A stretch of 64,000 bases of DNA, taken from contig OZ024753.1 in NCBI GenBank assembly GCA_964016885.1, positions 21,824,001 to 21,888,000 on the forward strand, written 5' to 3'. The notes beneath the pieces were generated by a model. That model made no database searches, was not told the DNA's origin, and saw only the letters and a list, made by a program, of their open reading frames with translations. Of the stretch, positions 62,311 to 63,130 are shown piece after piece (the stretch's first letter is position 1; the number at the start of each line of letters is the position of its first letter). The translations under genes and the position numbers were made by a program. This stretch comes from Eledone cirrhosa (taxonomy: Eukaryota).

Positions 62311-63130
62311 TAGGATATGTGTTCCTTCACGCACAAGGCGCTAAGGTACGCATGTATTGTCCAACCAAATGCCAGTGTGGTTCAATGGCGGGTTAATAAA
62401 TTAACGAGCCAGAACAAATATAAACAAGGTTTAGCAAATAATGAAAAAGTTTCAAAATAAATTTTAAAAAATTGACTTTACCTACTATAGTTACCTTTAC
62501 CGATCGGTTTCGAATCCCAAAAATAAAACGGAGACCATACGGCCTTCGTTGCAAAGAAAGATTCTCGTCAGAAGGTTCTTTTCATTCAAAGAATATAAAA
62601 TTCCTGAATTTAAATTACAGACTAGCGCTATCAAAACTGTTCCCGGGATGAGAGTGGATGATGTAGAAACAGGTTTATCAAGGGCCGAAGCACACTGGCA
62701 TTTGGTTGGACAATACATGCGTACCTTAGCGCCTTGTGCGTGAAGGAACACATATCCTATTACTACTACCTCCTCTAATGTTGAGAACAAATTTGGTCGT
62801 TCTGACTGCTGCTAGCGATAGCTGTGGCTGGTTTAACCTACCTCCTTCTGCCTCTATCTTTGCTTCGGCCCTTGATAAACCTGTTTCTACATCATCCACT
62901 CTCATCCCGGGAACAGTTTTGATAGCGCTAGTCTGTAATTTAAATTCAGGAATTTTATATTCTTTGAATGAAAAGAACCTTCTGACGAGAATCTTTCTTT
63001 GCAACGAAGGCCGTATGGTCTCCGTTTTACTTTTGGGATTCGAAACCGATCGGTAAAGGTAACTATAGTAGGTAAAGTCAATTTTTAAAAATTTATTTTG
63101 AAACTTTTTCATTATTTGCTAAACCTTGTT
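62311..63130. mobile_element. non-coding inverted HHR element M, ~470 nt unit
   Basis: tail 62311-62408 plus arm 62409-62691 (-); then tail end 62692-62759, unique 62760-62862 and arm 62863-63130 (+); (TA)n on both sides. Confidence 0.92.
62977..63060 (+). ncRNA. type I hammerhead, stem III CCGATCGG (mirror copy 62493-62576 minus)
   Basis: ACCTT-CTGACGA-GAATCT..GGATTC-GAAA-CCGATCGG-TA-AAGGT. Confidence 0.9.

Follow-up and report, generated by a model that had tools for sequence, protein, structure and literature searches.

A 483-nt hammerhead repeat family in Eledone cirrhosa with two fixed, paired 3' ends: a probable non-autonomous PLE of retrozyme type

How PLEs come to leave tandem or inverted insertions with a tail at one end, and whether retrozyme circles serve as PLE templates, are treated as open questions in the literature considered here (PMC8557442; PMC7229834; bioRxiv 10.64898/2026.07.22.740005). 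Both meet at a short element lying in a (TA)n tract of the window, i.e., the whole 64,000-nt stretch of Eledone cirrhosa DNA that was analysed. A sequence-only reading had interpreted this element as the cDNA of a ~470-nt circular hammerhead RNA. The locus thereby raises the question of which RNA was copied, by which machinery, and whether a circle is needed to explain the product.

The element at 62310-63135 consists of two head-to-head, 5'-truncated arms of an ORF-less 483-nt unit inside (TA)n, and both of its flanks are pure (TA)n, a context that would mask any target-site duplication. Unit coordinates (u) were taken from the tandem locus L021, with u1 corresponding to window position 62761; the tandem unit of this locus measures 483 nt, which corrects the earlier estimate of ~470 nt. 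The features are as follows:

62278..62312, no strand: left (TA)n tract, the insertion target (period 2, 17.5 copies), its last bases common to the 3' end of the - arm
62310..62692, - strand: arm 1, u101-483, 5'-truncated and reaching fixed end 2 (u483), by inverted-repeat and unit mapping
62310..62417, - strand: 108-nt "tail" (u376-483) between fixed ends 1 and 2, by arm-end mapping; sister families have a ~105-nt tail in a like layout
62493..62576, - strand: type I hammerhead of arm 1, predicted cut after 62498, uncut in the DNA (motif scan, covariation)
62687..62692, no strand: head-to-head inversion junction, where the arms overlap by 6 nt if one mismatch is allowed and by 2 nt exactly (inverted-repeat and arm mapping)
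62691..63135, + strand: arm 2, u414-483 followed by u1-375, 5'-truncated and reaching fixed end 1 (u375), 445 of 483 nt
62760..62761, + strand: u483|u1, the "CCTAT|TACT junction" of the earlier reading, where fixed end 2 is read through within arm 2
62977..63060, + strand: type I hammerhead of arm 2, predicted cut after 63055 (motif scan, covariation)
63072..63135, + strand: AT-rich stretch beginning with GT (comparison with sister families)
63131..63225, no strand: right (TA)n tract, the insertion target (47.5 copies), its first bases common to the 3' end of the + arm

The + arm comprises u410/414-483 followed by u1-375 (62687/62691-63135) and lacks u376-409/413. It is related to the - arm by two inverted pairs, 62418-62692 with 62861-63135 (275 nt, 99%) and 62310-62383 with 62687-62760 (74 nt, 99%), the arms being mismatched at 2 of 275 shared positions. 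The segment u1-100, which had been described as a unique 5' segment, owes its uniqueness solely to the truncation of the - arm at u101. The claim that the element has no credible ORF was borne out: the longest stop-free frame in the L021 unit spans 111 aa, and a 129-aa antisense frame of the window copy found no match when Pfam was searched, so that the unit is as free of protein-coding capacity as a non-LTR retrozyme. Judged by the GT..AG stretches of sister families, the AT-rich segment at 63072..63135 may resemble a short retained intron, although the AG is absent in the 483-nt family.

A motif scan detected one type I hammerhead per arm, the core lying at 62982 on the + strand and at 62571 on the - strand. 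This agrees with the earlier statement that the + arm crosses an intact hammerhead with a predicted cut after 63055 (u295), yet the - arm crosses an intact one too. Stems I, II and III comprise 5, 7 and 4 bp, respectively, and stem II closes a 39-nt insert. An Rfam scan of the whole window at gathering thresholds returned no match, and the unconstrained fold of 62960-63085 did not form the hammerhead (z -0.15); within an 84-nt piece, the constrained hammerhead fold reached -19.6 kcal/mol versus -21.7 kcal/mol for the best fold. The ribozyme is therefore called from its core motif and from covariation. The latter was evaluated in an alignment of 11 hammerheads, including older subfamilies and sister families met beside or through the mapped loci; between the families compared, unit identity is 54% (mean of shuffles 47%, maximum 50%). 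In this alignment, 92.4% of cells are paired and 8 of 16 pairs are changed on both sides. None of 500 shuffles reached the paired-cell, changed-cell or covariation values, the remaining two of the five measures did not exceed the shuffle control (122 and 54 of 500 reaching the real value), and sliding the alignment reduced the paired cells to 23-55%. The covariation support for the predicted ribozyme is strong but, the sequences being related, does not amount to a probability. Core and stems, compensatory changes and sites recurring with period 483 point to one type I hammerhead per unit, as in retrozymes. Its stem III is a 10-nt palindrome with a predicted self-pairing energy of -16.6 kcal/mol, as in dimer-dependent hammerheads; a palindromic stem III is reported to let such hammerheads act as dimers (PMC4209133).

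Searching the 3.0 Gb genome with the + arm gave 1,969 candidates. Full-length matches among the 40 scored were 95-100% identical, several of them recurring every 482-483 bases. An exact 22-nt cut-site pattern matched 1,236 times, compared with 0 matches for a reversed control. The sequence-only reading had regarded genomic tandem masters as a competing source of the junction, and such masters do exist: among the first 100 of the 1,236 cut sites listed, a 9-unit array (L094) and a 10+2-unit inverted array (L117) were present. At least two consecutive complete hammerheads, the hallmark of a tandem retrozyme, were found at family level in L021, L094, L117 and L122, and the window locus itself carries two hammerheads in opposite orientations. 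Tandem and inverted forms thus coexist in the 483-nt family; the proposed kinship to animal non-LTR retrozymes stands, whereas its qualification as inverted rather than tandem does not.

For a detailed evaluation, 95 loci with 149 arms were mapped, 47 of the loci originating from the first 100 cut sites and the others from best-score searches. They had been picked for matches that were long or contained a hammerhead, and one segmental duplicate was dropped. L007 and L010 share an identical insertion including flanks ~0.6 Mb apart on contig C2, representing a segmental or assembly duplicate. The sample holds 72 arms (of 149) exceeding one unit and 48 head-to-head pairs, i.e., the partial tandems and inverted 5'-truncated insertions expected of a non-autonomous PLE. 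The 5' ends of the arms are scattered across the entire unit, and gaps at the inversion junctions range from -16 to +31 nt, mostly being small overlaps. At the inversion junction of one locus (L008:1337-1380), 14 nt that cover the hammerhead cut site occur three times. Units diverge by 0.6% on the same strand and by 1.0% between opposite arms within a locus, compared with 5.7% between loci. In L103 and L122, private variants are common to two adjacent units and absent from the remaining ones; because this sharing is partial, unit-length duplication at the DNA level after insertion also builds arrays.

In contrast to the scattered 5' ends, the 3' ends of the 149 arms are largely confined to two positions (137 arms), with 78 at u375, 59 at u483 and 12 elsewhere. 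These fixed ends lie 80 and 188 nt past the cut and are spaced by 108 nt, and nearly all 3' ends adjoin (TA)n, the AT-rich target typical of PLEs. Nine free u483 ends run a few template bases further before (TA)n is reached. The RNA consequently extends beyond u483, and the CCTAT|TACT "junction", earlier taken as the sign of a circle, is an internal start site rather than a point of RNA ligation: a second fixed 3' end that lies inside any hammerhead-to-hammerhead monomer and is uninformative about circularity. The two ends are used one of each. Head-to-head pairs within the 95 loci combined u375 with u483 in 39 of 41 classifiable cases, a further 7 having another end. Extension to 154 loci yielded 60 mixed pairs, 2 both-u375, none both-u483 and 13 with another end. 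For this count identical elements were merged and the additional loci were chosen by 5'-end position rather than 3' end; slight double counting is possible. The 60 of 62 mixed pairs correspond to p = 4e-16 against independent choice at 0.5. Since independent site choice predicts about half of the pairs to be mixed, coupling of the two priming events is inferred, the simplest arrangement being one RNA held by one dimer.

The same pattern recurred beyond the 483-nt family. A sister family with a 54% identical unit has its ends at ~+89 and ~+196 from its own cut, and 35 of its loci provided 5 mixed pairs and 1 both-long pair among 6 classifiable ones, the sixth being poorly mapped. In an abundant ORF-bearing element of this genome with RT and GIY-YIG similarity, all 3 inverted pairs that were mapped at both ends joined a short end to a long one. 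Two fixed 3' ends with a one-sided tail, here of 108 nt and beyond the published 30-40 bp, together with their one-of-each use constitute the PLE "tail" signature; therefore, the 483-nt element is a non-autonomous PLE or non-LTR retrozyme. This tail rule is a stronger finding than the circle proposed earlier. The family is real, young and abundant, and there is little doubt that it moves as a non-autonomous PLE with coupled two-site priming.

Compared with metazoan non-LTR retrozymes (PMC7229834; bioRxiv 10.64898/2026.07.22.740005), the family shares a tandem unit that is free of ORFs, measures a few hundred nt and carries one type I hammerhead, a GC content below 50% (39-40% here), the range from monomers to multimers and the co-occurrence with PLEs. 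At the level of sequence, it falls within the definition of a non-LTR retrozyme. Such retrozymes have been proposed as non-autonomous PLE derivatives copied from circles (same sources). With 483 nt, the unit is larger than the ~170-400 nt retrozymes of PMC7229834 and within the 51-972 bp given by bioRxiv 10.64898/2026.07.22.740005; its long stem II domain (53 nt) is unlike that of non-LTR retrozymes. Head-to-head insertions, fixed paired 3' ends and (TA)n targeting are not described for retrozymes in the portions of these two papers considered here. Circles and cleavage have been demonstrated for non-LTR retrozymes, whereas the 483-nt family is known from its DNA sequence.

The likeness to EN+ PLEs with pLTR and tail (PMC8557442; PMC3846280; PMC11167929) comprises partial tandems, an inverted 5'-truncated copy, the tail at one end, AT-rich or (TA)n targets and a hammerhead that precedes two internal RT start sites. 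In the 483-nt unit, 80 nt separate the cut from the first of these sites, compared with anole initiation 111-118 nt into the ORF and a cut at +26 (PMC11167929). Unlike EN+ PLEs, the unit has no ORF, and its tail of 108 nt contrasts with 30-40 bp; the one-sided tail, described as "optional" or "often" present in EN+ PLEs (PMC8557442; PMC3846280), is found in 60 of 62 pairs here. Non-autonomous Chlamys elements (e.g., MRC1, PMC8557442) are PLEs of a comparable kind, having pLTRs and inserting as several head-to-tail copies. However, the Naiad/Chlamys clade is reported to be without canonical hammerheads, which the 483-nt unit has, and Chlamys non-autonomous elements resemble their autonomous family at the 3' end (PMC8557442), whereas for the 483-nt family no matched partner was found in the loci searched. 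The octopus repeat annotation of PMC13282606, in the portion considered here, makes no mention of ribozymes. A literature search, with supplements, Repbase/Dfam and subscription journals outside its scope, returned nothing on the 483-nt family, a 108-nt tail, inverted retrozyme insertions or a counted one-of-each rule. The last three set the family apart from known systems. As a genome feature alone, the family is an ordinary selfish repeat; its value lies in evidence, drawn from the insertions themselves, for the mobilisation of a retrozyme-type repeat by PLE machinery, in a 108-nt tail that makes the two start sites easily scored, and in a pairing count that constrains enzyme models.

Considering these data, the element was probably generated by the RT and endonuclease borrowed from a PLE, writing two back-to-back truncated copies into (TA)n from a twice-primed template that was likely a ligated circle. 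Tandem loci would be transcribed, and the hammerhead, probably dimeric through its palindromic stem III, would excise monomers to be circularised by a host ligase; alternatively, the multimer would be left uncut. A dimeric PLE protein acting in trans would then nick both strands of (TA)n, one nick priming at u375 and the other at u483 via short TA-rich matches to the RNA. Each cDNA would extend over hammerhead sites for a variable distance of up to 10 units, and microhomology would join the two 5' ends into a head-to-head insertion that carries the tail on a single side. PMC11167929 reports for the anole Poseidon element that the purified protein cleaves and extends both strands, that a dimer is predicted, and that the RT starts at two internal RNA sites with a spacing equal to the genomic tail. 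The most specific version, one circular hammerhead RNA sitting on a dimeric Penelope enzyme, started at two sites 108 nt apart on both (TA)n nicks and rolled round, is put forward tentatively and with less than even confidence. If true, the one-of-each rule would be the genomic footprint of an asymmetric twin priming general to PLEs, and the 483-nt family would offer a convenient substrate for connecting retrozyme circles with PLE transposition in vitro.

A head-to-head inversion with microhomology at its junction could also stem from a LINE. L1 inversions arise by twin priming, with a variable position of the internal primer. LINE-type twin priming of a SINE-like linear RNA would account for these two aspects, and LINE-like ORF fragments adjoin some loci. 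It is nevertheless very improbable: both priming points are fixed, the 3' end is without poly(A) or repeat, the arms overlap in unit sequence and span several units, and a type I hammerhead with a one-sided tail marks PLEs (PMC8557442; PMC4209133). We regard an origin at the DNA level, with a satellite-like repeat dispersed and inverted by fold-back repair and unequal exchange and without any RNA step for this copy, as slightly more improbable still. Tandem arrays do exist, some of them enlarged by DNA duplication, and long (TA)n tracts can fold back; however, the dispersal of copies over many contigs, together with two exact 3' ends, 5' ends that scatter and the one-of-each rule, is a pattern of reverse transcription. 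The weightier choice concerns the template within the PLE reading. A cleaved, linear hammerhead-to-hammerhead RNA was considered and rejected. Copies truncated within 3 nt of the cut numbered 14 genome-wide, compared with 17 and 4 at two control positions, i.e., 14 of ~1,170 (1.2%) versus 17 of ~1,060 (1.6%) and 4 of ~510 (0.8%), with denominators scaled from match rates in 47 sampled loci. As truncation at the cut is no commoner than at the controls, cleaved linear RNA is rarely or never the template, and with no pile-up of 5' ends at the cut, the template must be either re-ligated or uncleaved. The earlier argument against a linear monomer is hereby supported, 14 copies truncated at the cut standing against 1,236 exact intact sites.

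Between these two templates, we lean slightly toward the ligated circle. The ribozyme is conserved though its cut is almost never a 5' end, units within one insertion are near-identical, and circles are reported for related retrozymes of coral, mussel and axolotl (PMC7229834). The same two-site PLE insertion from an uncleaved linear read-through RNA of tandem masters, with a hammerhead that is slow or used elsewhere and arrays rebuilt by template jumps and unequal crossing-over, has a substantial chance of being correct, albeit one short of even. Such an RNA would also explain every crossing, since tandem masters of 9-10 units exist besides many dimers. It fits the partial sharing of variants in L103 and L122 and the anole PLE, where in vitro hammerhead mutants still insert, cleavage not being needed, and unprocessed RNA is the main substrate (PMC11167929). 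PLE-type hammerheads are moreover reported to cleave weakly (PMC4209133; bioRxiv 10.64898/2026.07.22.740005), and no cleavage was seen for 8 of 9 Xenopus retrozyme dimers (bioRxiv 10.64898/2026.07.22.740005). On the other hand, it leaves the compensatory stem changes unexplained, given that 5' ends hardly ever fall at the cut, and daughters outgrowing their parents would need an extra step. The 12 units of L117, covering both arms, share two variants absent from the other sampled loci, which also speaks against uncleaved RNA. Among 77 multi-segment loci, however, only 3 have private variants that are fixed across both the tandem units and the opposing arm, which argues against the need for a circle, and 151 private variants were confined to a single unit. 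A 5'-end peak from one lap or primer collision, suggested post hoc by the 95-locus sample, showed no excess, in line with an uncleaved template. The first 100 of 151 matches, inspected by eye, placed 25 ends at u369-377 and 61 at u378-400 (14 indel variants excluded), corresponding to ~2.8 and ~2.7 ends per position, respectively. A second lap test (25 matches, 4 excluded by eye) gave 21 ends over 14 positions, i.e., ~0.33% per position, a value inside the range of the controls; u481-u1 accounted for 11 of these ends, which microhomology could explain. Circular folds of real monomers were mixed, with z scores of -1.25, -2.42 and -3.05 in the 483-nt family and -5.19, -6.28 and -6.47 in sister families (30 shuffles each), and taken together we draw no support for a circle from them. 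Circles as templates for more-than-unit PLE or retrozyme copies were proposed already in 2014 and 2020 (PMC4209133; PMC7229834), so the idea itself is not new. A circle is possible at this locus; the DNA does not require it.

An autonomous RT + GIY-YIG element sharing terminal sequence with the 483-nt family was found neither in the window nor in 60 loci from hammerhead and tail motif searches. Several arms are fused directly to other repeats (L047:1347-1456, L239, L096:1289-1338, L058:1838 onward), the partners being a PLE endonuclease-coding end, a PLE 3' region, the end of another hammerhead element and a SINE-like repeat; these fusions are possibly template switches during reverse transcription. 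In L047, 110 nt of the endonuclease-coding (GIY-YIG) end of an abundant PLE lie directly 5' of a 483-family arm, and in L239 the 3' region of this PLE is joined to a sister-family unit. Both fusions point to the abundant PLE as leads only, because it has 31,690 candidate matches and shares no terminal sequence. This PLE-like family is represented by a 5'-truncated copy at window 53040-55100 (+) and by loci L146-L181. It shows RT and GIY-YIG similarity, open frames of up to 1,218 aa in a unit of ~4.13 kb, partial tandems and inverted pairs, and a hammerhead-like core whose stems I and III are not clear; a Pfam search with its full ORF (1,217 aa) gave no family. Its 3' ends are 44-58 nt apart, unlike those of the 483-nt family, for which it is only a candidate autonomous partner.

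The several sister families (L182-L241, e.g., L190, L203, L206, L212, and L228) are ORF-less hammerhead units of ~481-525 nt with a similar layout, represented by 486 and 1,647 pattern matches, and in most of them an AT-rich, intron-like stretch (GT..AG) is retained that extends to fixed end 1. The window hosts two further long ORFs matching RT and GIY-YIG at 1557-3806 (+) and 17216-18748 (-), the former with an inverted repeat on both sides (1-242 / 3886-4138). Other hammerhead-like motifs occur at 42117-42630, 49461-49712, 45595, 46730, 51096-51163, 51946-51996, 52882, 24450-24494, and 5161-5215; two of them form inverted pairs, and they probably represent more PLE ends or mini-elements. Large inverted repeats surround long ORFs without Pfam match at 55791-58079 / 60013-62282 (97%) and 13382-14402 / 15326-16377 (94%), structures that may be Naiad-like. 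The former repeat stops at the (TA)n tract into which the 483-nt element was inserted.
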